In this document: positions 2 through 45,441 of the stretch, piece after piece | How the letters are laid out: every line of letters starts with the position of its first letter | Position numbering within the stretch: position 1 is the first letter of the stretch | Origin: an uncultured Alphaproteobacteria bacterium | Lineage (GTDB): Bacteria > Pseudomonadota > Alphaproteobacteria > Micavibrionales > UBA2020 | NCBI GenBank assembly: GCA_966211335.1 | Contig: CBIHNF010000001.1 | Location: 730,847 to 794,846, forward strand | Reading direction: 5' to 3' | DNA: 64,000 nt | The notes under the pieces: generated by a model | Databases searched by the model: none | What the model saw: the letters and a program-made list of their open reading frames with translations, nothing else | Told to the model about the DNA's origin: nothing | Program-made: the position numbers and the translations under genes

Positions 2-406
2 TATGCGCTCATGTCGGTCGCCGCGCTCTTCTTCGCTATGGTCGTCGCCAGCGCCTCCGGCGCGGCACTCGCAACGCTCGGCCTCTACGTCCTCGCGCGC
101 CTCATCGGCACGGTGCTCGGCATCGCGGCGGAGGCACCGGCAAATTATTTTTACGCCATGCTCAACAACGCGGTCGAGCTGATCTCCGTCTTCGTGCCGC
201 GGCTTGACCTGATGGGGCAGACGTCCTGGCTCGTTTACGGCGTTGCGGGCTCCGGCGGCATCGGCTTCACGCAGGAAGCGGGCACCTATGCGCATATGAT
301 GGTGCATCATTTGGGCCTTCTCGGTTTCATCTCCCTGCAGGGGGTGATTTTTATCATGCTGCTCCTCGCGGCCACAGCCTTCGACTTCCTACGCCGGGAG
401 TTCTGA
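2..406 (+). CDS. integral membrane protein, C-terminal fragment (5' end upstream of window)
   Basis: Frame open from window edge (no stop in 2-10). Track ORF 11-406. Several hydrophobic helices and GC3-rich codons. Stop 404-406 abuts the next start. Confidence 0.5.
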   Translation, partial: YALMSVAALFFAMVVASASGAALATLGLYVLARLIGTVLGIAAEAPANYFYAMLNNAVELISVFVPRLDLMGQTSWLVYGVAGSGGIGFTQEAGTYAHMMVHHLGLLGFISLQGVIFIMLLLAATAFDFLRREF

Positions 407-407
407 C

Positions 408-1211
408 ATGCCGCGCGTCTTCGCCAACGACGGCCAACAGCCCCGCACCGCGGTCAGCCTCTGGCTTGCCTTCGCCGTTAGCATTAACTTCATCATCTGG
501 CTCGGCTCCAGCAGCGTCTTCGCCAAATGGGACGGCGTACCGCCGGCCCCCGCGCGCCGCTCCGCGATCATGATGGGACTTGGCGATTCCGAATTCGCTT
601 ATCGCTACGGTGCGCTCGAGCTGCAAAACCTCGGCGATTCCGGCGGCCAGACGACAGCGCTCAAGGATTACGATTATCAAGAGCTCGGCAAATGGTTCTG
701 GCTGCTCGACAGCCTCGATCCCGCCTCCGACCACGTGCCGATGATGGCGGCATACGTCTTCGGCGCGACGCGTGTGCCGAGCGATGTACGTGTCGTTTAC
801 GACTATCTCGCGAAAATTGGCGACAACCCCGCTGGGCAGAAATGGCGCTGGCTGGTGCATGCCATTTTTCTTGCGCGCCATCGCCTCTATGATCTCGACC
901 TAGCGCTCGGCCTTGCCTACAAACTTTCCAAAATGCAGCTGACCGACGACCATCTGCCAGACTGGGCGCGGCGAATGCCTGCGCTTGTCCTCGCCGAAAA
1001 GGGTGACAAGGAAGACGCGCGCAAGATACTCGAGGATATCCTCGTCAGTTCCGATAAAATTCATCCCAATGAGGTCAATTTCATGAAAGATTACCTCATC
1101 CACCAGCTGGGGGTCGACCCGCGCGAGGTGGAGGCCATCGTCGCGCTGCGCGGCAAGCAGTCCGACGACCATACACTGCCCAAGACCAAGCCAGCGCCGA
1201 TGCCCGAATAA
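408..1211 (+). CDS. hypothetical membrane-anchored protein
   Basis: ATG lies 1 nt after the upstream stop (translational coupling). N-terminal TM helix LWLAFAVSINFIIWLG. No domain recognised. Confidence 0.6.
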   Translation: MPRVFANDGQQPRTAVSLWLAFAVSINFIIWLGSSSVFAKWDGVPPAPARRSAIMMGLGDSEFAYRYGALELQNLGDSGGQTTALKDYDYQELGKWFWLLDSLDPASDHVPMMAAYVFGATRVPSDVRVVYDYLAKIGDNPAGQKWRWLVHAIFLARHRLYDLDLALGLAYKLSKMQLTDDHLPDWARRMPALVLAEKGDKEDARKILEDILVSSDKIHPNEVNFMKDYLIHQLGVDPREVEAIVALRGKQSDDHTLPKTKPAPMPE

Positions 1212-1240: not shown

Positions 1241-2332
1241 ATGCCTTTTGATTACCAAGCCACCTTTAGTCTCATCGAATGGCTTGCGCTGACGGGCCTT
1301 GCGCAAAGCCTGCTGATCCTTGTGTACATTGTTTTCCGTGTCCGCAACTGGCGACAGGCCTCAATCGCGCTTGCCTACTTCACCTTCCTGGCGCTGGCCT
1401 TCGGGTTGCAATTCGCGCTGCGGCTTGACGACTATGAAACCAATATCCGTCTTGGCCTCGGTTTTTCGCGCGCCATGGGCGCGCCGCTCTGCTATCTGCT
1501 CGTACTACAGGTGTCGCGGCCGCAGACCATGCCGCCTGCGCGTCAGTTCCTGATTTTACTTCTGGTGCCACTCGCTTTCGTTCTTGGCTTCCTCACGGCG
1601 CATTTTGAAAAAGTCTGCGATGACGGTGCGCTGCTCTGCACGCGATCCTTTTCGGTTCTTGGCTGGTTCAGCGCTATGGCGGGCGCCTTCTGCATGCTGG
1701 CGATCTGGTTCCAGAAAAATATCTTCACTATTCTGTGGGAAGAAAAGGGTGGGAGGGAGCGTTACTGGCTCGTCATGACGCTCATCGTCGCCAACGTGCT
1801 GCGCACCGGAGTCAGCCTTCTGACGGCGACGGGCCATGTGGCACGGCCTGATTCGGACGCACTGCAGGTCATGCTCGGCATAGCTTTCGCTTACCTTGTC
1901 ATGACAACTCTATTTCGCATTTACCCCCTGCCTGTGCAGCTGCACACCTCGTCTCGCGCACGGCTGCTACTGCTGTCCGACGAGGAAAAAGAGATCGCTG
2001 AGAAGGTGCGCAAGCTCATGGAGCTCGACAAGGTCTATCACGAGCCTTCTTTCAGCCGCGCGGATCTGGCGCGGGAAGTCGGTACTTCCGAAAATACGCT
2101 TTCCCGCGTCATCAACCAAGCCTTTGGCAAAAGTTTCCCCAAATTGCTGAACGAATTCCGTGTGGAAGATGCAAAACGGATGCTGCATAACCCCGCGATT
2201 GCGATCAATGTGCTGGCCTTTGAAGTGGGTTTCAATTCGCTCGCTTCCTTCAACCGCGTCTTCCGCGAAGTAACGGGGGAGACGCCTTCCCGCTACCGCA
2301 GCCGCCACCAACAGCAGAATACCGGCGCGTAA
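1241..2332 (+). CDS. AraC-family transcriptional regulator with about 7 N-terminal TM helices
   Basis: C-terminal AraC HTH (ADLAREVGTSENTLSRVINQAFGKSF ... FEVGFNSLASFNRVFREVTGETPSRYR). About seven hydrophobic helices in the first 230 aa. GGAG upstream of the ATG. Confidence 0.85.
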   Translation: MPFDYQATFSLIEWLALTGLAQSLLILVYIVFRVRNWRQASIALAYFTFLALAFGLQFALRLDDYETNIRLGLGFSRAMGAPLCYLLVLQVSRPQTMPPARQFLILLLVPLAFVLGFLTAHFEKVCDDGALLCTRSFSVLGWFSAMAGAFCMLAIWFQKNIFTILWEEKGGRERYWLVMTLIVANVLRTGVSLLTATGHVARPDSDALQVMLGIAFAYLVMTTLFRIYPLPVQLHTSSRARLLLLSDEEKEIAEKVRKLMELDKVYHEPSFSRADLAREVGTSENTLSRVINQAFGKSFPKLLNEFRVEDAKRMLHNPAIAINVLAFEVGFNSLASFNRVFREVTGETPSRYRSRHQQQNTGA

Positions 2333-2828: not shown

Positions 2829-3629
2829 ATGAAATGTATTAAAACCCAAAAAGGCTTCACACTCGTCGAATTGGCGATCGTGATGACCATCATCGGTCTT
2901 CTGATCGGTGGTATTCTGAAGGGCCAGGAACTGATGGACAACGCCCGCGTCTCCGCAACGATCGCGCAGACCAAGGGTATTGAAGCCGCCACGACCAGCT
3001 TCCGCGACAGCTATAACTCGATGCCGGGCGATATTCCGAACGCCTCCACGCGCGTTCCGTCCTGCAACGCGTCCTGCAACGTTGTTGCGGCCACGGCTGG
3101 CGACGGCATCATCGGTACGGTTGCCGGTTTCTCCGCCAACTATAACCCGCAGCTAACCACCGCCCTTGGCGGTACCGTGACGGATGAAACCCAGCTGTTC
3201 TGGACCGAACTGCTGCTCGCCAACCTGACGTCGGGCTATACCGATGCGCCGATCCGCGCAACGCCGCCCGCACCGTCGTGGGGCATCACCCAGCCCGCAG
3301 CAAAAATCGGCGGCGGCTATTACGTCGGCTACGCCGTCGGCCTGATCGGCCTTAACTCGCCGATGACGGCAGGTTCCGGCCCGTCCGGCACCGTGCTGGT
3401 GCTGGCGCAGAGCCCGACCGCAGCTATCACTGGTACGGCTGGTAACAACCCGCTCACCCCGGGTCGTGCTGCCCAGATCGACCGCAAGCTCGATGACGGC
3501 AAACCCGGTACCGGCTTCGTCCAGGCTTATGGCGTTGCCACCAAGTGCTGGCAGTCTGCCGCTATCGCAGCCTACGACGAATCCGATACCCAGAAAGATT
3601 GCGGCCTGATCCTGCGTATTCAGGGCTAA
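2829..3629 (+). CDS. type IV pilin (prepilin, copy A)
   Basis: Class III signal MKCIKTQKG|FTLVELAIVMTIIGLLIGGIL with Glu5. C-terminal Cys pair (KCW...KDCG). GGGGAG RBS. Terminator follows. Confidence 0.85.
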   Translation: MKCIKTQKGFTLVELAIVMTIIGLLIGGILKGQELMDNARVSATIAQTKGIEAATTSFRDSYNSMPGDIPNASTRVPSCNASCNVVAATAGDGIIGTVAGFSANYNPQLTTALGGTVTDETQLFWTELLLANLTSGYTDAPIRATPPAPSWGITQPAAKIGGGYYVGYAVGLIGLNSPMTAGSGPSGTVLVLAQSPTAAITGTAGNNPLTPGRAAQIDRKLDDGKPGTGFVQAYGVATKCWQSAAIAAYDESDTQKDCGLILRIQG

Positions 3630-3820: not shown

Positions 3821-4618
3821 ATGCAACGCACATTTCAAAAAGGCTTCACACTCGTCGAATTGGCGATCGTGATGACCATCATCGGTCTTCTGATCGGTGG
3901 TATTCTGAAGGGCCAGGAACTGATGGACAACGCCCGCGTCTCCGCAACGATCGCGCAGACCAAGGGTATTGAAGCCGCCACGACCAGCTTCCGCGACAGC
4001 TATAACTCGATGCCGGGCGATATTCCGAACGCCTCCACGCGCGTTCCGTCCTGCAACGCGTCCTGCAACGTTGTTGCGGCCACGGCTGGCGACGGCATCA
4101 TCGGTACGGTTGCCGGTTTCTCCGCCAACTATAACCCGCAGCTAACCACCGCCCTTGGCGGTACCGTGACGGATGAAACCCAGCTGTTCTGGACCGAACT
4201 GCTGCTCGCCAACCTGACGTCGGGCTATACCGATGCGCCGATCCGCGCAACGCCGCCCGCACCGTCGTGGGGCATCACCCAGCCCGCAGCAAAAATCGGC
4301 GGCGGCTATTACGTCGGCTACGCCGTCGGCCTGATCGGCCTTAACTCGCCGATGACGGCAGGTTCCGGCCCGTCCGGCACCGTGCTGGTGCTGGCGCAGA
4401 GCCCGACCGCAGCTATCACTGGTACGGCTGGTAACAACCCGCTCACCCCGGGTCGTGCTGCCCAGATCGACCGCAAGCTCGATGACGGCAAACCCGGTAC
4501 CGGCTTCGTCCAGGCTTATGGCGTTGCCACCAAGTGCTGGCAGTCTGCCGCTATCGCAGCCTACGACGAATCCGATACCCAGAAAGATTGCGGCCTGATC
4601 CTGCGTATTCAGGGTTAA
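3821..4618 (+). CDS. type IV pilin (prepilin, copy B; mature part identical to copy A)
   Basis: Leader MQRTFQKG|FTLVE... Residues after the cleavage site are identical to copy A. AAGGAA RBS. Terminator follows. Confidence 0.85.
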   Translation: MQRTFQKGFTLVELAIVMTIIGLLIGGILKGQELMDNARVSATIAQTKGIEAATTSFRDSYNSMPGDIPNASTRVPSCNASCNVVAATAGDGIIGTVAGFSANYNPQLTTALGGTVTDETQLFWTELLLANLTSGYTDAPIRATPPAPSWGITQPAAKIGGGYYVGYAVGLIGLNSPMTAGSGPSGTVLVLAQSPTAAITGTAGNNPLTPGRAAQIDRKLDDGKPGTGFVQAYGVATKCWQSAAIAAYDESDTQKDCGLILRIQG

Positions 4619-4665
4619 GCTTTCCACCAAGACAAAAGAAGAGCCCGGTGCGACAGCACCGGGCT
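3836..4665 (+). repeat. direct repeat unit 2 (830 bp) of tandem pilin duplication
   Basis: See unit 1. Identity starts at the codons for QKG|F and ends in the terminator stem. Confidence 0.9.
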
Positions 4666-5944: not shown

Positions 5945-7114
5945 TCAAGGTAAAGCGCATTGAATGACGCCCGCACTGTTGAACCCGACGGCGTATTTCC
6001 CTGCCGGGCAGCTCTGCACGCCGGCAGGCGCGGGCAGCGGCACCAGTCCGCAAATGACTTTAGCTTTTTGCAGGCCGATAACGACGTTGCGATAGCCGGG
6101 CGGGGTTAAGGTTTGGGAACAAATGTTGCCGGCCGCAGGATCCGCAATGCTGCTCGGGTTCCAGCAGTTGCCACTGCCTGTATCATCACAGACGCTCGGC
6201 TGGGCGATCTGCGTGCCGGCAAGCGTGCCGGCGACGTCAAGTTTGGCCTGGGGGATGTCCACGCCAACGCCGACGCTGCCGCCGTTCACGTTATGAACAT
6301 CAGGCGTATTCGGATCGGAGGGGTTGGCGATAAAGTCCCACAGCCGCGTCAGCGACCGTTCCGTGTGGCGTACGTAGTCGTCGAAATAGGGCACTTGCGC
6401 GCGGATGCCTTGAATGAAGGTGCCGTTCAAGTTGCAGTTCTTGACCTCACTTGTACCGCCAGCAGCGCAGGGAACAGGGATTTTGCCATCCGCGGAATAG
6501 GCGCCGGCGTGGTTCTGGCCGTAGCCGATAATTACATAGTGGGTACTGGCGGCGGGGTTGGCCAAATCCTGGCCATTTTCCGTCTGGACGCCGATGGAAC
6601 CCCAAGCGTTATCGAAGCTCGCCTTGACCGTCAGCGTCTTGGAGACAGCATAGCCGAACTTGTAGCCGTAGGGATCGAGAGAGTCGCTGACGGTAACGTT
6701 CTTAATCGCGCCGGACGCACTCGCTTGCAGGGTCTTAAAAGGCACCGAACCCATGTAAACGGGGTCCATCGCCCCCACCTGCGGTGCGAGTGTCTTGCGC
6801 GCGCCCGGGAAGGTTGCCAGCGCACAATTCTCAACCCCGGCATTGGCGTCCGTGCTGCGCAGGGTCGGGTCCGCGGGGCAGGGGTAGCGGCCAAAGCCGT
6901 TGTAGAAGTCGGATATAGCTGTATCTATCTTTTCCATCGCCTTCAGCGTATCCGCGCGCTTCCCCGACGCGTTGTAAAGGTCATACAGCTTTACACCCGC
7001 GACAAGCATCAGGCTTGAAATAACCATCACCATGGCGACTTCAACCAGGGAAAAGCCGCCCCTGCTGCGGATACCTTTATGCACTCTCGTTCCCATCAGC
7101 TCTCTCCGGATCAT
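5945..7114 (-). CDS. large prepilin-type N-terminal domain protein (pilin-like adhesin paralogue 2, 389 aa)
   Basis: Start set at ATG 7114, in an ATGA overlap with the upstream stop (7111-7113). Leader MIRRELMGTRVHKGIRSRGG|FSLVEVAMV. The track's longer ORF (to 7282) would overlap the upstream gene. Confidence 0.75.
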   Translation of the reverse strand: MIRRELMGTRVHKGIRSRGGFSLVEVAMVMVISSLMLVAGVKLYDLYNASGKRADTLKAMEKIDTAISDFYNGFGRYPCPADPTLRSTDANAGVENCALATFPGARKTLAPQVGAMDPVYMGSVPFKTLQASASGAIKNVTVSDSLDPYGYKFGYAVSKTLTVKASFDNAWGSIGVQTENGQDLANPAASTHYVIIGYGQNHAGAYSADGKIPVPCAAGGTSEVKNCNLNGTFIQGIRAQVPYFDDYVRHTERSLTRLWDFIANPSDPNTPDVHNVNGGSVGVGVDIPQAKLDVAGTLAGTQIAQPSVCDDTGSGNCWNPSSIADPAAGNICSQTLTPPGYRNVVIGLQKAKVICGLVPLPAPAGVQSCPAGKYAVGFNSAGVIQCALP

Positions 7115-9588
7115 TCGCACGAGCAGGTACCGTACTGGTAGCCGCCACCGCCGGGAAGGGCGGCCGAACAGTTGGCCGTGTCGCTGTAGGTCGAGCAGGT
7201 GGTATTGGCTTGGATGGTGCGCGGCAGGGAACCACTGCCGCTGATGCTCTTCATCTTCCAGAAGTACAGGGTGATGAAGCATTCATTGTCATACGTTGTC
7301 CAGGCACCCCAAGTGCCGCTGCCGCAGTCATAGTCGCGGCGCTGGTTGTCCGCGCCCGTCATGCCGCTCGGGCACGTGGCGGCACGCGTTTCCGTTGCAC
7401 CCGCGCAGGTGCAATGGTCACCGCCGGGAATGGTCGCCCAAGCAGACCAGGAACCGCCGCTCCCGCCGCAGGTCCAGACCCGTTGCTGGCTCAGATAGCC
7501 TGAAAAAGCGGTGGGGCAGGAGGTGGTGCGGGTCTGCGGCGCCTGCGCGGCGCAGGTGCAGGTATTGGAAGGATATGTCGGCGTACCGAAGTATCCTGAT
7601 TTCAAATCCGCGTTGCAAAGCCAAGGCGTGACTTTGGTAATAGAGCCCGAGGTATAGGCCGAGCCGCAGGACAGGTATTCCGTTTTCGTATCCGGCACGC
7701 AGGTGCAAAGGTTGATGTCGTTGGTATAGCTATCGGTATCCGCGGGGCATGTATGCGTATGATGCCGCGTATGCGTGCCTGTAAAGCCGAAGGAAGGGCA
7801 ACCCAAGTTTTCATCCGTATCGATGGCGCTGCAGCTGCAAATGCCGCTTTCCCCGATTTTGCCCCACTGCCCATCGCTCTGGCACTGCCAGGTCTGGCCG
7901 TAGCTGATGCCCGAAACCGGGGTTGTGCCCACAATGGCACCCGGCAGCGCGCTAGGCAGCGTGAAGGTGTCGGGCACGCAAAGTGCGACCGTTCGCGTCG
8001 CGCATTTCAGCACGCTGGAGCAATGAATGGTGCCGTCAGCATTGATCGCGTCCATGATAGAGCCACTCGGGCAGGCGACGTTGACGGCGCTTGCCGTCGT
8101 GCAGTCGATGGCGTCATGCGAGAAGCCGACCGCAAAAGGCGGTTTCAGACCGCCGCAATTGTACTTGGGAGAGGCCGGCGACGCGCCCTTGGCGATTTCC
8201 GCGTTTGTGATGCAGGCGGTGCCGTCGTTCCGACAGACGTAATCGCCGACGGTGGTCGAAGTGTCGGTTTTGATGGTGCCGCGGGCATCCAGCGTCTGGG
8301 TGGGGCTCGACGTCTTGACGCCGATCTTGCCGGTGGATTCAGCATCCACCAGGTCGCGGATGTCATGGCCCGCGGGATCCGCGATGCGCCACAGCGGCGT
8401 ATCGGACGAGGCGTAGAATTTGATGACATCGTCATAGTGCGTGGCTTCGTTGGTCGCCTTGGTCGTCGAGCTGTAATTGGTGATTTTGAAAATTGCCTTG
8501 TTGCCGCCAGCGCAGTTGACGCCGTCCTTGGCGACGGCCGAGCACGGAACGCCGATTTTGCCGAAGTGCGTATAAGCGCCGGCACCGTCTTCGCCGCTGC
8601 TCATGATCACGAAGTGAACCTGACCGGAGCCGTTGTCCAGCTTGCGATAATCACCAGAGCCCGCCGTCGTTTCAACGTCGTCGATAACCGAAATGCCACC
8701 GCCGTTGCGGGTATAATCCGCGGCCGTGCGGGCCAGGGGCTCCGTCACCGCGTAGCGGATGCGGTTGTTATAGCCGTCATCCGCATAGCTTTCATCCATG
8801 CCAAGCGTGCGGAACGGCACGCCACCGACTCGCACACGCTGGAATGTGCCTGCGACCGGGCCCGTAGGCGGGCCGTAAAGCGCCGAGACGCGCATTCTCT
8901 TGAAGGTGCCGGAACACGGGTCGCCAAAGTTGGCGTTGGTCGCCGCGAAAGTGGCTGAGTTCAGCCCTAATACAATCCCCTCCACCACGGTTTTACTCGA
9001 CGTCGAATTGCACGCCCCAACGTTATAAGAGCCGCATATGCCGCTTGGCGTGCCGTAGGAAGCGAAAGTGATGCTCTGAATGACGTTACCCGGCGGTGCT
9101 GTCAGCGTAATATTGGTGTTTTCATCGCCTTCCCCGCAAAGAAGGTTCGAGCCCCCTACTGCCGTCTGGCTTTCCTGAATGTAGACACCGCTGCCAGTAT
9201 GAACGCCGGCTGCATTATAACTGGGCTGGAAGGTGCCGACCGCCTGGCCCGTAGCAGTACAGTCACCGGAAACCCCGAACTCCGGCTTATCGGGCGGAAC
9301 ATCGATGGGGGCGGGGCAGGGGTAATGGCCGTTACGCACGAGGTAATCGTTCAAGGCCTGAACCACCTGGCCGGTATTGGTGGTAGTGGTTATCTGTCTC
9401 TGGGTGCGGCTATAAATATTGTACGCCGAAATCAGCGATGCCATCACCAAGCTGAGGACGACGAGAACAATCGCGGTTTCAATCAGCGTATATCCTGCTT
9501 GGTGCCATTTACCCGTATTCAAGCGCGCAGGCGAAGTTGAATGCTGCTTAGACGAGCGACCAAAAAGGACCACGGGAATTCTCCACAC
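7111..9588 (-). CDS. giant prepilin-type protein with lectin-like domain and Cys-rich C-terminal modules (825 aa)
   Basis: ...KWHQAG|YTLIETAIVLVVLSL class III signal. The track start is GTG 9588. An in-frame TTG at 9522 would give a typical 10-aa leader (MNTGKWHQAG). GC3-rich codons throughout. Confidence 0.75.
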   Translation of the reverse strand: MWRIPVVLFGRSSKQHSTSPARLNTGKWHQAGYTLIETAIVLVVLSLVMASLISAYNIYSRTQRQITTTTNTGQVVQALNDYLVRNGHYPCPAPIDVPPDKPEFGVSGDCTATGQAVGTFQPSYNAAGVHTGSGVYIQESQTAVGGSNLLCGEGDENTNITLTAPPGNVIQSITFASYGTPSGICGSYNVGACNSTSSKTVVEGIVLGLNSATFAATNANFGDPCSGTFKRMRVSALYGPPTGPVAGTFQRVRVGGVPFRTLGMDESYADDGYNNRIRYAVTEPLARTAADYTRNGGGISVIDDVETTAGSGDYRKLDNGSGQVHFVIMSSGEDGAGAYTHFGKIGVPCSAVAKDGVNCAGGNKAIFKITNYSSTTKATNEATHYDDVIKFYASSDTPLWRIADPAGHDIRDLVDAESTGKIGVKTSSPTQTLDARGTIKTDTSTTVGDYVCRNDGTACITNAEIAKGASPASPKYNCGGLKPPFAVGFSHDAIDCTTASAVNVACPSGSIMDAINADGTIHCSSVLKCATRTVALCVPDTFTLPSALPGAIVGTTPVSGISYGQTWQCQSDGQWGKIGESGICSCSAIDTDENLGCPSFGFTGTHTRHHTHTCPADTDSYTNDINLCTCVPDTKTEYLSCGSAYTSGSITKVTPWLCNADLKSGYFGTPTYPSNTCTCAAQAPQTRTTSCPTAFSGYLSQQRVWTCGGSGGSWSAWATIPGGDHCTCAGATETRAATCPSGMTGADNQRRDYDCGSGTWGAWTTYDNECFITLYFWKMKSISGSGSLPRTIQANTTCSTYSDTANCSAALPGGGGYQYGTCSCE
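8872..9150 (-). other. SUEL/rhamnose-binding-lectin-like domain inside the 825-aa pilin-like protein (aa 147-239)
   Basis: The motifs FASYGTPSGIC ... FGDPCSGTFKRMRVSALY follow Gal_Lectin hallmark spacing. Confidence 0.6.
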
Positions 9589-13890: not shown

Positions 13891-15330
13891 TTAGGCCGGA
13901 GCTACCGCATTTTTGGCGGGTTTCGCTTCCTTCGGCACAATGGCGGCCGGCGTTTCTTTCGCAGCAGCGATTGTCACCGCTGGCAGCTTCAAACCGTCAT
14001 TCGCCTTGTCGGCGGTGCGCAGGAAGCCTTCGATCTCGGCGTATTTTTTCGGCTCTGACGGGGTTGTGTCGTCTTTGCCAAGGGAGGAGCGGATCATGCC
14101 GGCCGAGGTTTCATCGACGGCAATCGCGCCGCTCTTGATACCATCACGCAGGGCGGTGATGCCTTTTTGCAGTTCGGGGTCGCCTTTGGCAGCCTCGATC
14201 TTCTTGTCGAGGAAGCCTTCGAGACCTTCAAGCGCTTTCGGCGCTTCGGTCTTGGCGGTTTCAGCAGGCGGCGCGTCGGCAGTGGTTTCCTGCTTTGGCG
14301 CGTCCTGTTTCGGCGCTTCCGTCTCGGGTTTCTTGTCGGTCGCGGCGAATTTGCTGTTCGACAGGTCAATCGGGCCCTGCTCGGCGGCAGAGGCGCCAAC
14401 GACCAGCTGGTCAGCGGTCGCCGAACTCTTCTGCGCTTCAAACTGGGCGAGTTTTTCGTAAACGGCGCTACCTTCGGGCGGCGCAAAGTTTGCAACGCCA
14501 AGGCCCTGCTTTTTCGCTTCCAGCCACATCATTTCTTTTTGCGCATCGTTACCGTAGACGTTGACCGCTTTCCAGCCGCGCTGGCGGGCTGCCGCCATGA
14601 CGCCATGGGCGTCGACTTCGTCAAAATTCTTGGAGCGGTTCGGCATGCCGATGAATTCAGCGCCGCCGAGGTTGGCGTGCCATTCAATCGCGTGGTTGTT
14701 CTGCAGTTCGAAAACGAGGCCGCCTTTGTGCGGATAAACCTTGCCTTCCGGCCCCAGCGCACGCGCCAGTTCCGCGTCCAGCTGGAAGTCGGGATCCGGC
14801 CAGACTTCACGCATTTTTGCGAGGGAGTCGGGGTGCACAGCGAGGTTGGTCGCAAAGCGCGACTGCTGCAGCTGCTCGTTGTCGATCGGCGTATCGGCGG
14901 TCGGCGCGGTTTGCTGTTGCGGCTGCGCAGGCTTGTTTGCATTCGCTTCCGCTTCTTTTTTCTTGCGGATTTCCTCTTCCGTTTCGGCAACGGGGGCGGC
15001 GGGCGCATCGCCGTCTTTCTTTTCTGCTTTTTCTTCAGCCGGCGGCGCGGTGTTCAGCGGCGCATCGGCCTTTTTCTCTTCCACCGGCGCCGTCGCATTC
15101 GCGGCGGGCGGCGTCACGGGGTCGGCTTTCTTTTCTTCCGCGGTCGCGGTGGCGGTCGAGCCTTCGGCCGAGGGTGCGGTCGCCTTCAGGTCGACCGCAG
15201 GGGTGACTTCGTCGGCATTGCGGACGCCCTGAACCGGGTCTTCCTTCGCTGAGGTGAATTTCGTGTCGGGAGGGGTCACCGGTGCGTCATTTTTGGCGGT
15301 GTCGGCGGGTTGCTTCACATCATCAGCCAT
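13891..15330 (-). CDS. hypothetical protein, Ala/Pro/Glu/Lys-rich disordered arms around a folded core
   Basis: Longest of many overlapping ORFs. GC3-rich codons. GGGATGAGG upstream of the ATG. EEKKAD-type low-complexity repeats. Confidence 0.6.
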   Translation of the reverse strand: MADDVKQPADTAKNDAPVTPPDTKFTSAKEDPVQGVRNADEVTPAVDLKATAPSAEGSTATATAEEKKADPVTPPAANATAPVEEKKADAPLNTAPPAEEKAEKKDGDAPAAPVAETEEEIRKKKEAEANANKPAQPQQQTAPTADTPIDNEQLQQSRFATNLAVHPDSLAKMREVWPDPDFQLDAELARALGPEGKVYPHKGGLVFELQNNHAIEWHANLGGAEFIGMPNRSKNFDEVDAHGVMAAARQRGWKAVNVYGNDAQKEMMWLEAKKQGLGVANFAPPEGSAVYEKLAQFEAQKSSATADQLVVGASAAEQGPIDLSNSKFAATDKKPETEAPKQDAPKQETTADAPPAETAKTEAPKALEGLEGFLDKKIEAAKGDPELQKGITALRDGIKSGAIAVDETSAGMIRSSLGKDDTTPSEPKKYAEIEGFLRTADKANDGLKLPAVTIAAAKETPAAIVPKEAKPAKNAVAPA

Positions 15331-25665: not shown

Positions 25666-27396
25666 TCAAGGCGATGGCGTCCGGCGGAGACGCGATGCGC
25701 GCGGCAGGGCGGGCAGTGCTTCGATGCCGAAGGTTTTTGCTGTCTCCGCATCGATGCCGCGCAGCTTTTCGGCGGACTCCAGGCGGAGGGTTTTCAAGGC
25801 ATCGGTTTCCGTCGGTACGGCACCCTGCGTTGCGAGGAAGTTCATCACTTCCGCCAGCGGCTTGAGGCCCGCGAAATCCGCCTTGAAGAAATTATAGCCT
25901 GCGGCGGATTGCAGCAAGGCTGTCGGCGCATCGGCGACCTCTTGCGTATAGGGCACGGCGTGCTCATCGTGCAGATAGCGCATGAAGTCTACCGCCTCTG
26001 CACCTGAAACGTTGCGTTCCATCGGAAATCCCCTACCGTAAAAAACCGGCGTCAGCAGCTTGATCATCAGCGAAGCATCGGGCAGCGCACCCGCCTCGAT
26101 CAGGATTTTCGCAAGGTCAAGGTTGCCGTTCTCGACCGCCATCTGCACGGGCGTGCCGGCGGGGCCTTTGGAGGTGAAATCATAACCATTGTCGATCAGG
26201 TAGTGCAGCATGGCGGGATAACCGTCTTCAGCGCCCATGGCAGCCGCACGTTGGCGTCGGCCGCTCGCGACAACCGCATGGACGAAGGAGCGGAGGTTAT
26301 TCCCCGCCGTTTGCGTTTTGTCGAGCCCTTGCGACTCCAGCCATTTAAAGGCGTCAAGATCGGCGCGGCAGGCGGCGTTGCCGCCGGCGCTATTATCGAA
26401 TTTTTTTGCGTTCACATCGGGTGCATAGGGGCGCAGGACTTTCAGCGTCTCCAGCGTCGGCCCCTGCGGGTCATGGTCGCCGGCATCGACAAAATGCGAG
26501 GCGTCGGGCCGTGCGCCCAGCTCAATCAGGCGGGGGATAAGGTCGTAAACGTTATGCAGCGATGCCTGACGCAGCGTCATATCGCTGTGGATTTTGTCGT
26601 TGTCTTTTGCCTGTGCAGCCACGGCTTCGAACAACTCTCGGCGCTGTTCGGGTGTAAAGGGCGCGGCGTTGTTTTTGTGGCCGATCTCTTCATGGCGCGA
26701 CATCAGCACCCAGTCGAGCGGCAGGAACTTGCCGGGATATTCATCGTAGACATGGGCGGGGTTCATGCCGCTGGTCACGAAGTCCAGCACCTTTTCAAAC
26801 GGTGCTGATTTGATGATCTCGAGGAAAACAGCCGGGCGGTAGTCGACGGTTTCAATCAACCTCTGCAGCACAGGTGCAGCCTGCGCGGCGGGGATGCGGA
26901 AAGATGAATCAAGGTGATTTGCCAGTTTTCCCTCGACGTCTGCCATGGTTGCGGCGGGGCCATTCTGTATCATGGCAAGGCTGATACCGCCGGCTCCGGA
27001 ATTTTCCTCCGCCTCGACGAAGTAGCCGGCGTCGGTCGCCGATACCTTGAAGTTCATCAGTTGCTTGCCGTCCTGCAGCAGCTGCACCTTCGCGCCCGTG
27101 ACGTTGAAGTCCCAGACATCGTCAGGAACATCTTCCATGATTTGCTCGGCGCTCAGCTTTAGCGGCACTTTCATTTTTTCCAGCGCGAAGCTGAGCTGGT
27201 AGACCTCGTTGACGAAGTTCGCCAGTAGATCTGTCTTTAGCGCTTTCGGCGTCATTCCCGCCCGCTCGGCGTCACGTTCTGGCAACGTGGGTGTAATGGG
27301 GTCGGCTTTCACGCCTTCCGCCAGCAATTCTTTGGCCGTATCCGCATCGGGAATACGCGCGGCAATTTTCTCGAACAACGCGGAGAAGACAGTCAT
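25666..27396 (-). CDS. ankyrin-repeat protein (576 aa)
   Basis: ANK-type repeats in the C-terminal half (e.g. TPVQMAVENGNLDLAKILIEAGALPD, YPAMLHYLIDNGYDF). Confidence 0.7.
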   Translation of the reverse strand: MTVFSALFEKIAARIPDADTAKELLAEGVKADPITPTLPERDAERAGMTPKALKTDLLANFVNEVYQLSFALEKMKVPLKLSAEQIMEDVPDDVWDFNVTGAKVQLLQDGKQLMNFKVSATDAGYFVEAEENSGAGGISLAMIQNGPAATMADVEGKLANHLDSSFRIPAAQAAPVLQRLIETVDYRPAVFLEIIKSAPFEKVLDFVTSGMNPAHVYDEYPGKFLPLDWVLMSRHEEIGHKNNAAPFTPEQRRELFEAVAAQAKDNDKIHSDMTLRQASLHNVYDLIPRLIELGARPDASHFVDAGDHDPQGPTLETLKVLRPYAPDVNAKKFDNSAGGNAACRADLDAFKWLESQGLDKTQTAGNNLRSFVHAVVASGRRQRAAAMGAEDGYPAMLHYLIDNGYDFTSKGPAGTPVQMAVENGNLDLAKILIEAGALPDASLMIKLLTPVFYGRGFPMERNVSGAEAVDFMRYLHDEHAVPYTQEVADAPTALLQSAAGYNFFKADFAGLKPLAEVMNFLATQGAVPTETDALKTLRLESAEKLRGIDAETAKTFGIEALPALPRASRLRRTPSP

Positions 27397-42828: not shown

Positions 42829-45441
42829 GTGGCGTTAAAGGAGAAATATCAGATCAAAGGCGCGGACCTCCTCCGCGATGCGCGTCCCTGGACGACGCGC
42901 ATGACCGACGCCGCGCGCGACCCTTCCACCGCCGGCGTCGCTTTTGCCATGGCGGGTATCGGCATTTTCACCGACCCCATGGTGTCGAACTTCGCAGACC
43001 TTATCTTCTTCATCTTCTGCATCTATTTTTACTGGCTGATGTCCCGGCCGGTGAAGCTGCCTTTCAAGCTGCCGAAATCTGCCGGTATCAAAGACCCCAA
43101 CTACAAGCGCCCCGACGGCTCGCTCGGCATTGCCGACGGCATTCTTTATCTTGGCAACGACAGCGACACGCAGGAAGAGATCTGGTTCACCAACTCCGAC
43201 GCGCGGACGCACTGCCTCTACCTCGGCACGACGGGTTCGGGTAAAACCTTTGGTCTTAAGTCATACGCCGTCAACGCGCTCTGCTGGGCGTCGGGCTTCA
43301 TCTACATCGACGGTAAAGCGGATACCGATTTGTGGTCGACGCTCTCCGCCATGGCGCGCCGCTTCGGCCGTGACGACGATCTGCTCATCATGAACTACAT
43401 GACGGGTAACGCGACCGGCCGCGTGCCGTCCAACACCATGAACCCGTTCTCTTCCGGTTCGGCGTCGTACCTTACCAACATGCTCGTCTCGCTGATGCCG
43501 GATTCCGAAGGCGACAACGCGATGTGGAAAGACCGCGCCGTCGCGCTCGTCTCCGCCCTTATGCCCTGCCTTGTCTGGAAGCGCGAAAACCAGAACATGC
43601 CGCTCTCCATCGGCGTCATTCGTACTTATCTTACCTTCAAGGCGGTCATTAAACTGTCGCGCGACAGCGTCATTCCTGACCTGCTGCGCTCGCCCGTGCG
43701 CGGCTACCTGAACGAGCTGCCCGGCTATGTCGACCATGTCTTCGATGACGAGGGCAACGAAAAGCCGATGCCGCCCGATGCCGGCGCCGTTGATACTTCC
43801 GTCCCGCGCCAGCAGCACGGTTACCTGTCCATGCAGTTCACGCGCTCCATGCAGTCGCTGGGTGACGACTACGGCTTTATCTTCGACACGCAGGCGGCCG
43901 ACATCGACATGCTCGACGTGGTCCTCAACCGCCGCATCCTCATCGTCCTCATCCCCGCCCTTGAAAAATCGTCGGATGAAACGGCCAACCTTGGTAAAAT
44001 CATTTCGTCCACGCTGAAGGGGATGATGGGCGCGACGCTCGGCAACTCGGTCGAGGGCTCGACCGAGACGGCGATCGAGAACAAGCCGACGCGCTCCGAA
44101 ACCCCCTTCATCGCCATCTTCGACGAGGTCGGTTACTATACGGCGCAGGGTATGGCGGTCATGGCGGCGCAGGCCCGCTCGCTCGGCTTCTCCCTCGTCT
44201 TCGCGGGTCAGGATTTACCCGCCCTTGAAAAGCGCGTGAAGGAAGAAGCGCGTTCCATCACGGCGAACTGCAACATCAAATTGTTCGGCAAGCTCGAGGA
44301 TCCGACCCAGACGAAGGACTTTTTCGAGAAAACCGTTGGTACCGCGCTTGTCACCGAAGTCTCCGGCTTCCAGCGGGGCGGCCAGCAGGGCGGCGGCGGC
44401 AGGGGCTATACCGATTCCGCCAACGCCTCCGTCCAGTCGCGCGCACGCGCGTCCTATGACGGCCTTAAAGGTTTCAACGAAGGCCGCGCCGTCGCCGCCT
44501 TCGGCAAGAGCGTTGTTGAAATTCAAGTCTATAACTCCGACATCGGCCATGCGAAGGCGATGCGCGTCCACCGCTTCCTGCCCATCCCACCGCCGGCGGA
44601 AGAAGCGCTGGAATCCCTCCGCCTCGTCAACGATGTGCTGAAGCGCATCCGCAACCCGAAGTGGAGCGCGGAAGCGCTACAGTCCCCGCCGTCCGCCGAT
44701 ATCGAGGCGCTGGCGCAGGGCTTTGCCGCCGCGAAAAAGGGCGGCGCGAACCTGCTCGAATGCGGCATCAACGGCGTTGCCGCGGTTGCCGAAGCGCATA
44801 GCACCATCAAGCCGGAAGACGCTAATGCCGCCGACACGCCGGCTGGCGATTCCACCGTCCGCAAACAGCCCGCTGCCATGGCGGAGGCCGAAAAAGCCGC
44901 TGTTGCCGCCGTTGCGAAAGCGACGGGTAATGCAGGCCCGCTCAGCTGGACGGAAGTTATTGGCGGCGCTGCCGCGGCCGAAGCAACGCAGCTGCGCCGC
45001 GACCCCCCTGTCACGGAAGCGCCTGCGCAAAAACAACAGGCCGCCGCCGCAGCCGCTGCACCGGCACCGGTTACTTGGGAAGATGTCATCAGTTCCGGCG
45101 GCCGTCAGGCGAAGGAATCCGCGGCCTCCGCCGCTTCCGCCGCCCTGCCGCAGCCGATTTCCTGGATGGATGTTATCGGCGGCGCTGCCGCAACGCTCGG
45201 CCCCAATGCCGTGCAGGAAATGACGCTTGGCAGCCTCACGGGCATGCCCGACCTTGCCGGCGTCGGCCCCGCCGATGCGACACCGCCGTGGCAGGCAGCA
45301 GCGGAAACGCCGGCGGCGCCTGCGGAAAGCCCGCTGAAGGCGCCTGAAGACAATACCGTCAAGTCACCGCTCAGCTGGGCCGATGTTATCGGCGCGGCGA
45401 CACAAACGGCTGCCAAAGAAGGCGGCGAAGCTGCGGAATAA
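42829..45441 (+). CDS. dotL: DotL/IcmO-like (IncI TrbC-like) type IV coupling protein ATPase
   Basis: 870 aa. Two N-terminal TM helices. Walker A LGTTGSGKT. Walker B region FIAIFDEVGYY. Blocks LNRRILIVLIPALEKSSDE and AQARSLGFSLVFAGQDLPAL resemble IcmO as I recall it. GTG start. Confidence 0.8.
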   Translation: MALKEKYQIKGADLLRDARPWTTRMTDAARDPSTAGVAFAMAGIGIFTDPMVSNFADLIFFIFCIYFYWLMSRPVKLPFKLPKSAGIKDPNYKRPDGSLGIADGILYLGNDSDTQEEIWFTNSDARTHCLYLGTTGSGKTFGLKSYAVNALCWASGFIYIDGKADTDLWSTLSAMARRFGRDDDLLIMNYMTGNATGRVPSNTMNPFSSGSASYLTNMLVSLMPDSEGDNAMWKDRAVALVSALMPCLVWKRENQNMPLSIGVIRTYLTFKAVIKLSRDSVIPDLLRSPVRGYLNELPGYVDHVFDDEGNEKPMPPDAGAVDTSVPRQQHGYLSMQFTRSMQSLGDDYGFIFDTQAADIDMLDVVLNRRILIVLIPALEKSSDETANLGKIISSTLKGMMGATLGNSVEGSTETAIENKPTRSETPFIAIFDEVGYYTAQGMAVMAAQARSLGFSLVFAGQDLPALEKRVKEEARSITANCNIKLFGKLEDPTQTKDFFEKTVGTALVTEVSGFQRGGQQGGGGRGYTDSANASVQSRARASYDGLKGFNEGRAVAAFGKSVVEIQVYNSDIGHAKAMRVHRFLPIPPPAEEALESLRLVNDVLKRIRNPKWSAEALQSPPSADIEALAQGFAAAKKGGANLLECGINGVAAVAEAHSTIKPEDANAADTPAGDSTVRKQPAAMAEAEKAAVAAVAKATGNAGPLSWTEVIGGAAAAEATQLRRDPPVTEAPAQKQQAAAAAAAPAPVTWEDVISSGGRQAKESAASAASAALPQPISWMDVIGGAAATLGPNAVQEMTLGSLTGMPDLAGVGPADATPPWQAAAETPAAPAESPLKAPEDNTVKSPLSWADVIGAATQTAAKEGGEAAE

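Follow-up and report, generated by a model that had tools for sequence, protein, structure and literature searches.

A window of 64,000 nucleotides (the whole stretch of DNA analysed here: contig CBIHNF010000001.1 of an uncultured Alphaproteobacteria bacterium, positions 730,847 to 794,846) encodes on its minus strand a giant pilin-like protein, named P825, in which residues 147-239 constitute a genuine SUEL/rhamnose-binding lectin (RBL) domain. This protein also possesses the N-terminus of a type IV pilin, and its gene belongs to a pilus gene cluster. We consider that P825 is probably a modular pilin, namely a glycan-binding minor subunit of a retractile type IV pilus, whose most likely use would be attachment to prey. 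A first-pass annotation had described a lectin-like domain at this place; its coordinates and sequence, residues 147-239 of the open reading frame (ORF) 7111..9588 (-), map exactly to positions 8872-9150. All residue numbers of P825 are counted here from GTG 9588, that is on the 825-aa ORF of the minus strand.

The likeness to the Pfam family PF02140 (SUEL_Lectin), which had been read from the spacing of a few motifs, was borne out by hmmscan. The whole P825 protein matched this model significantly (E 3.1e-11, 43.9 bits), and so did the excised 93-aa segment (E 5e-13, 49.7 bits), both scores being above the gathering cut-off of 31.4. The match spans residues 163-235 (8884-9102) and takes in positions 2-77 of the 80 in the model. 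When the sequence of the lectin domain was searched against the PDB, the strong hits were the sea-urchin rhamnose-binding lectin SUL-I (1.9e-22, its three repeats all being matched), RemA from Flavobacterium johnsoniae in its lectin region (1.2e-15) and rice beta-galactosidase 1 in its C-terminal domain (1.4e-15). The nearest database homologues of the domain were mostly LamG/type IX secretion system (T9SS)-tail proteins of Bacteroidota. The AlphaFold2 (AF2) model of residues 140-246, built with 60 homologues, had a mean predicted local distance difference test (pLDDT) score of 90.5. Its 14 top Foldseek matches in the PDB were all SUEL/RBL structures, with template-modelling (TM) scores of 0.66-0.80 and a probability of 1.00, and the E-value leapt from 9e-5 to 0.3 after the fourteenth. 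The best match was 5iaz, the rice beta-galactosidase (TM 0.80, root-mean-square deviation 1.4 A); 2jx9 and latrophilin lectin domains followed the same fold with TM about 0.73, and SUL-I and CSL3 matched too. SUEL/RBL folds were also retrieved from the lower-confidence full-length AF2 model of P825. The first-pass annotation would have been abandoned with no PF02140 match and an unrelated fold; both the match and the fold were found, and the SUEL identity is therefore upheld. A chance resemblance of motifs is ruled out by the E-values and by the fold match.

Lectins of this family are characterised by a calcium-independent affinity for L-rhamnose/D-galactose, and the residues which contact the sugar in a known member are present in P825. 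Nuclear magnetic resonance and mutagenesis established that four residues of the latrophilin-1 RBL domain bind rhamnose: Glu42, which follows the first Cys, Tyr63, Lys120 and, through its backbone, Gly117; binding is lost or severely cut by E42D/Q and K120R/A, and in RBLs that bind no sugar the Glu or the Lys is typically missing (PMC2430599). When P825 was aligned to SUL-I with HMMER and MAFFT, with 'CE', 'YG' and 'DPCxGxxK' as anchors, its residues E156, Y178, G227 and K230 fell at these four positions. The Glu/Tyr/Gly/Lys set is invariant in the pilin-borne SUEL domains (8/8), which share 41-53% identity overall, and in RemA. Also, the E, Y and K positions are at least 90% conserved in the 60 homologues. 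This intact contact set strengthens the idea of a glycan-targeting pilus adhesin, which may reasonably be drawn from it.

The replacement of canonical cysteines, pointed out in the first-pass annotation, was found as described: the domain has 4 Cys (151, 185, 193, 225) and not 8. Animal lectins of this family are recognized by eight Cys forming four disulfides and by the YGR, DPC and KYL motifs. In P825 the first Cys is displaced, YGT replaces YGR, KRM replaces KYL, and DPC is kept. RemA and the rice beta-galactosidase domain, whose membership of the family is accepted, also deviate, with YGT/FGT for YGR and KRL/KRV for KYL, and RemA has fewer Cys as well. Since these deviations are common to RemA and largely to the rice domain, they represent a bacterial/plant subtype and not decay. 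As judged from these sequences, the eight Cys and the YGR/KYL features delimit an animal subgroup and not the SUEL domain family.

The pilin half of the earlier interpretation also stood up, P825 being a type IV pilin-like protein within a pilus gene cluster. The N-terminal region scored 21.7 bits with N_methyl (PF07963, gathering cut-off 21.2) and 16.7 with TIGR02532 (cut-off 16.3), scores which by themselves are borderline for pilin identity. Residues G32, L35 and E37 are conserved across the P825 family, and the full-length AF2 model showed a 52-residue helix (aa 35-86) with pLDDT about 88-94. A profile of 46 family members matched solved type IV pilins in their alpha1 helix, up to an E-value of 1e-3, with geopilin at 1.5e-10 and the PilE/PilA pilins of Neisseria and Pseudomonas at 2e-7 to 3e-4. 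N_methyl and SUEL_Lectin thus occur in one polypeptide, and a precomputed annotation of P0119, from a related locus, gives this pair as well.

Translation of P825 probably starts at GTG 9573, which has GGAG 7 nt upstream; the independent Logan gene call (P0302, 820 aa) agrees with this start. The gene call of NCBI/ENA (P0001, 777 aa) begins at M49, so that the prepilin signal is lost. Because of this truncated N-terminus, the public annotation presents a SUEL protein and hides its pilin nature. A protein identical to P825 is encoded on a 2.2-Mb contig. The coordinates of the features are collected in Table 1.

Table 1. Location of the features of P825 and of its gene cluster in the window (aa, amino acid residues).
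Feature	Position	Strand	Remarks
Giant pilin-like gene P825	7111..9573	(-)	ORF from GTG 9588 = 825 aa; likely start GTG 9573 = 820 aa
SUEL/rhamnose-binding lectin domain	8872..9150	(-)	aa 147-239 of P825; inserted in head loop before conserved RVRVGGVPFR
Predicted sugar-contact residues	8899..9123	(-)	E156 (9121-9123), Y178 (9055-9057), G227 (8908-8910), K230 (8899-8901)
Prepilin (class III) signal with N-methylation motif	9433..9501	(-)	aa 30-52; predicted cleavage after G32 (AG|YTLIE), E37 at +5
Predicted pilin alpha1 helix	9331..9486	(-)	aa 35-86, full-length AF2 model
Capping-loop-like motif GKIGVKTSSPTQTLDARGT	8266..8322	(-)	aa 423-441; also found in trimeric fibre proteins
Four Cys-rich repeats, ~45-49 aa each	7279..7839	(-)	aa 584-770; CxC...CPxGxxG...QxR...C...GxWxxW
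Paralogous giant pilin P445	5945..7114	(-)	389 aa from ATG 7114
Paralogous giant pilin P410	4691..5896	(-)	401 aa; sister-clade orthologue carries SUEL insertion
Major-pilin-like gene, copy 1	2829..3629	(+)	266 aa, MKCIKTQKG|FTLVE; TIGR02532 26.8 bits
Major-pilin-like gene, copy 2	3821..4618	(+)	265 aa; 779 nt identical to copy 1
Membrane-associated AraC-type regulator	1241..2332	(+)	conserved in cluster
3' part of g273 and complete g267	11..1211	(+)	two conserved cluster genes, function unassigned
Terminator-like hairpin	4642..4665	(-)	10-bp stem, 8 GC pairs; consensus match only

Contrary to what had been thought, the lectin domain is not placed immediately behind the pilin helix: about 60 conserved residues, including a YPCPAP motif and one strand, separate the end of the helix (aa 86) from the domain. 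According to the alignment of homologues, the scaffold of the family consists of alpha1, GxYPCPAP, a Cys-containing loop, RVRVGxVPFR and YAVTE, in this order. The SUEL domain of P825 (~95 residues) is placed between the Cys-containing loop and RVRVG, with conserved scaffold on both sides, and most homologues have nothing at this site. An exhaustive profile search found 2240 representative clusters of the scaffold at E<=1e-30, and among the 150 best-scoring of them only P0002 and the divergent P0164 carried a SUEL domain. A misassembled fusion is unlikely, as homologous proteins from four other assemblies (the independent contig L001, L002/P0002, L003/P0003 and P0164) have the same in-frame insertion, each time flanked by conserved scaffold.

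Related genomic loci were retrieved with a 6-sequence alignment of the family, and 7 of these 16 loci encode a SUEL domain. In L002 and L003, it is carried by the P825 orthologue at the identical site. In L004-L008, it is carried by the P410-type orthologue (525-529 aa) in another loop, after YAVTEMLASS. The two groups of pilin SUEL domains are ~40-50% identical, and neither group is closer to the other than to the SUEL domains of Bacteroidota. A neighbour-joining tree also places them apart, which is weak evidence as the domain is short and the tree has no support values. Because the paralogue and the site differ and the sequences do not cluster, the comparison indicates that the domain was inserted twice independently in giant pilins. 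Since insertion would have been repeated although most of the family has no such domain, a lectin on this pilus would be advantageous, and selection for it is suggested.

Other modules were observed at the same places. Unrelated inserts of ~90-170 aa, all Pfam-negative, occupy both SUEL loops in other members of the family (P0153, P0170 and P0006 at the first site, P0169 at the second); one of them is Cys-rich and one looks beta-rich. From their sequences, both loops appear to be module-display sites and hot spots for module insertion.

P825, P445 and P410 form an apparent operon on the minus strand. The stop codon of P825 overlaps the start of P445 as ATGA (7111-7114), which suggests translational coupling inside this operon. 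The hairpin at 4642-4665 lies downstream of the operon and separates it from the convergent major-pilin genes, and another terminator-like hairpin was found after dapE, upstream of P825. On L001, the independent contig with an identical gene, a secretin and a T2SSE-family ATPase are located just beyond the position of the window start. The order of the cluster is ATPase, ATPase, secretin, g273, g267, AraC, pilin(s) and three giant pilins, beside dapE/dapD, and this synteny is found in part or whole in eight related loci. In L005, the two ATPases belong to the PilT/PilU family (443 and 417 bits, cut-off 319), and the closest model of the secretin is MshL, with a score below the cut-off of that model. 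No further pilus genes were found in the rest of the window, which encodes FtsK, Kup, ribonucleotide reductase, an M48 peptidase and similar proteins.

The two major-pilin genes share a perfect direct repeat of 779 nt (2847-3625 and 3836-4614) covering almost the whole coding region, and they differ in their leader peptides and upstream regions. One or two copies are present in related loci. This repeat could have arisen by recent duplication or by gene conversion, or it could be an effect of the assembly. In L004-L008 (e.g., L005 9692-11281; P0119, P0120, P0124), the order and orientation of the giant pilins are unlike those of the window: they are co-directional with the major pilin there, and convergent with it here.

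The related loci all come from metagenome-assembled genomes (MAGs) labelled Micavibrio sp., Alphaproteobacteria or Rhodospirillaceae. Cultured members of the Micavibrio type are obligate epibiotic predators, and the genome paper of Micavibrio aeruginosavorus ARL-13 reported dispersed pil genes together with three operons encoding eight prepilin-type proteins, and proposed type IV pili for adhesion (PMC3189940). According to that paper, an early study implicated carbohydrate receptors in the interaction with prey, and a later study suggested that this needs further investigation (PMC3189940). The same genome has a triad of genes, GMV_742/743/744, given as 391, 692 and 377 aa in the expression table (PMC3189940).

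On these grounds, we propose the following mechanism. P825 would be made as a prepilin with a class III signal cut after G32, and its hydrophobic alpha1 helix would anchor it in a type IV pilus, the gene cluster of which specifies two major pilins, an MshL-like secretin and the PilT/PilU retraction ATPases. As ~790 aa would be too bulky for the shaft, P825 is expected at the tip of the pilus with its paralogues P445 and P410, by analogy with GspK and with PilB/PilC of Streptococcus sanguinis. There, the SUEL domain displayed on its loop would bind L-rhamnose/D-galactose-type residues in the surface polysaccharide of another cell, such as lipopolysaccharide (LPS), capsule or exopolysaccharide (EPS), and retraction by PilT/PilU would draw both cells together. 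A glycan of the prey cell would be the most likely target, as epibiotic predators of the Micavibrio type are the closest relatives.

Several points weigh against this proposal. The confidence of the lectin domain in the full-length model is moderate, a Thr takes the place of the buried Arg of YGR and only 4/8 canonical Cys are present. There is one SUEL domain per P825 polypeptide, and a single RBL domain binds a monosaccharide weakly (dissociation constant of 1.8 mM for latrophilin-1; PMC2430599). In the stretches examined, no gene for an assembly ATPase (PilB), a platform protein (PilC) or a prepilin peptidase came to light. Also, the predatory lifestyle of this bacterium is deduced from MAG labels only. 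As regards the cultured relative, GMV_742-744 seem to lack a lectin insert, judging by size (the middle gene encodes 692 aa), and are weakly expressed (PMC3189940).

P825 might instead be a glycan-binding pilus adhesin whose ligand is not on prey, but is the bacterium's own exopolysaccharide or an environmental or host surface, for the purpose of motility, aggregation or biofilm entry. Predation by this uncultured organism is itself presumed, PilT/PilU imply twitching-type retraction, and RemA, the closest solved bacterial homologue, is a SUEL-bearing gliding adhesin for which a similar role has been proposed. Nevertheless, the scaffold family and the cluster are concentrated in Micavibrio-type MAGs, and the patchy, repeated gain of SUEL together with unrelated inserts at the same loops looks more like diversification of the target range than like housekeeping with self-EPS. 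We thus regard a ligand other than prey as unlikely.

A SUEL-fold domain on a pilus might also bind a protein or be structural. Many receptor-attached RBL domains work via protein contacts, and lectin RBLs are usually clustered for avidity (PMC2430599), whereas the P825 domain is single-copy. Lectin domains of latrophilins bind teneurin, and the Foldseek matches of the P825 domain include latrophilin-teneurin and TOL-1 complexes. Furthermore CofB, a type IVb minor pilin of enterotoxigenic Escherichia coli, interacts with a secreted protein (PMC6048534), through its lectin-fold domain. However, protein-binding RBLs typically have the Glu and Lys substituted, which is not the case in any of the eight pilin copies or in RemA, and many pili, or polymeric glycans as targets, could provide avidity. 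A role without sugar binding therefore seems quite improbable to us. Finally, we give hardly any credit to the idea that P825 is not polymerised and just borrows a pilin-type signal, being a pseudopilin-like protein, or a membrane-anchored one in the periplasm or at the surface, whose lectin domain works on polysaccharide of the envelope or on secreted polysaccharide: P825 is very large with an N_methyl score barely exceeding the cut-off, GspG and other pseudopilin models are its next-best weak matches, and pilus proteins may stand in for missing type II secretion system (T2SS) parts in M. aeruginosavorus (PMC3189940), but the PilT/PilU retraction ATPases of the cluster typify type IVa pili rather than the T2SS, the cluster has dedicated major-pilin genes and a secretin, and large modular pilins are known to enter pilus tips (PMC8179133, PMC9934059).

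The reading of P825 as a glycan-binding minor pilin can be carried further, at the cost of becoming rather doubtful. In Micavibrio-type epibiotic predators, a complex of the three giant pilins, perhaps a fibre-like heterotrimer in view of the capping-loop motif that they share with MAT fibres, would cap a retractile pilus and two loops of the scaffold would swap receptor-binding modules, the SUEL domain reading rhamnose/galactose-containing LPS or capsule of the prey. The modules so far would be SUEL (gained twice), the Cys-rich module and the beta-rich module. If this were true, the module content of the pilus tip would help to set the prey range.

Beyond the lectin, P825 presents two other regions of interest. 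All three giant pilins (P825, P445, P410) contain a GxVGIGxxxPxxxLDVxG motif. Positions 279-310 of the family profile match MAT fibres of Bdellovibrio, including Bd2133 (8ond_A, 6.2e-7), in which that motif forms capping loops on trimeric beta-helices (PMC10769870). When P410 was used as a single sequence, the PDB search gave only chance antibody matches and weak pilin matches; the match to MAT fibres needs the family profile. As the capping-loop motif is found in all three proteins and the three paralogues are always together, their sequences suggest that the giant-pilin triad may form a heterotrimeric tip fibre. Closer to the C-terminus, where residues 440-825 contain 30 Cys, the four Cys-rich repeats, within the C-terminal 240 residues, were predicted as all-beta by AF2 (pLDDT 80-94), and they gave no Pfam match and no PDB sequence match at E<=10. 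Thrombospondin type-1 repeats were considered for this region because of a resemblance by eye and were rejected, with neither a Pfam TSP_1 nor a PDB match. The 2021 dataset of modular pilins includes one IPR012902-TSP1-TSP1 protein (PMC8179133).

Elsewhere in the window, an 870-aa protein with a TraG-D_C (conjugative coupling protein) domain is encoded at 42829-45441 and a 479-aa protein with an LPD7 (large polyvalent protein-associated) domain at 13891-15330; one or the other may be left over from a mobile element. The guanine-cytosine content falls to 0.48-0.52 around 36-41 kb. A 576-aa ankyrin-repeat protein (Ank_4, E 7e-7; 25666-27396) is unusual in bacteria.

Prey recognition by obligate bacterial predators is poorly understood, and the carbohydrate receptors that were proposed for Micavibrio decades ago have never been identified (PMC3189940). 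The P825 locus offers a clonable candidate, namely a pilus subunit with an intact predicted lectin site of the rhamnose/galactose type. Natural controls exist among its relatives, which have no insert, an insert in the other paralogue or different inserts at the same loops. The family of giant pilins is moreover large and unannotated (>2000 representative clusters), and the present case extends the idea of modular pilins from C-terminal grafting to loop insertion.

The first-pass annotation was not aware of any description of a lectin module on a pilin helix, and this novelty was overstated, since modular pilins with lectin domains are established (PMC8179133, PMC9934059); what does hold is that we found no described SUEL pilin. 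Modular pilins associate an N-terminal IPR012902 motif with a non-pilus domain, and more than 1200 such proteins in 264 architectures, with various lectin domains, have been compiled (PMC8179133). Dataset S1 of that study contains the IPR012902-IPR000922 (SUEL) architecture for one protein, without comment. Our literature search combining SUEL or rhamnose-binding lectin with pilin or type IV pili gave spurious matches only and no paper describing a SUEL-bearing pilin.

Among characterized systems, PilC of S. sanguinis is a modular pilin located at the tip, with a concanavalin A (ConA)-like module that binds sialylated glycans and glycosaminoglycans (PMC9934059). Like PilC and PilB, P825 combines a pilin N-terminal module with a non-pilus functional domain and is proposed to be at the tip with partner minor pilins. 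However, PilC belongs to a Gram-positive commensal and carries a ConA-like lectin grafted at its C-terminus via a linker, whereas P825 is from a diderm and has a SUEL-fold lectin inside the pilin head, followed by ~580 more residues (head, fibre-like motif, Cys-rich repeats). Modular pilins are described with a C-terminal module fused by a short linker, and the module of P825 is internal. In this respect P825 is closer to the GspK/PilX type, in which a bulky minor pilin or pseudopilin has an extra domain inserted in the beta-sheet region and caps the tip complex (PMC8179133, PMC9934059); GspK has been discussed as a likely modular pilin (PMC8179133). Our searches gave no sequence or fold match between GspK and P825, and P825 differs by its recognisable lectin insert and by its partner set, made up of three paralogous giant pilins and not of HIJK.

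With regard to the lectin, RemA (PDB 8gl6_D, residues 713-805) provides the closest solved bacterial SUEL domain, of the same 4-Cys 'FASYGTPxG...DPCxGTxKR' subtype. RemA is a motility-associated surface adhesin, as P825 may be, but it is a T9SS-secreted gliding adhesin of Bacteroidota and not a pilin. The animal SUEL/RBL domains (SUL-I 5h4s, CSL3 2zx0, 2jx9) and the plant domain 5iaz share with P825 the Pfam family, the fold, the contact positions and the DPC loop; P825 departs from them by its 4 instead of 8 Cys, YGT, KRM, a single instead of tandem domain and its context in a prokaryotic pilin.

The MAT adhesins of Bdellovibrio bacteriovorus are located on the predator surface and have swappable tips, including lectin folds, with demonstrated binding to LPS or glycans (PMC10769870). 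They have the capping-loop motif in common with all three giant pilins, but they are homotrimeric fibres bearing a signal peptide and not pilins, and the similarity is confined to a motif of ~30 residues; trimerisation of the giant pilins by likeness to MAT fibres is only an idea. Compared with all these systems, the case of P825 is distinguished by the SUEL family of its lectin, the topology of loop insertion, the scaffold of a giant-pilin triad, the apparently repeated gain of the domain and its occurrence in a putative predator lineage.

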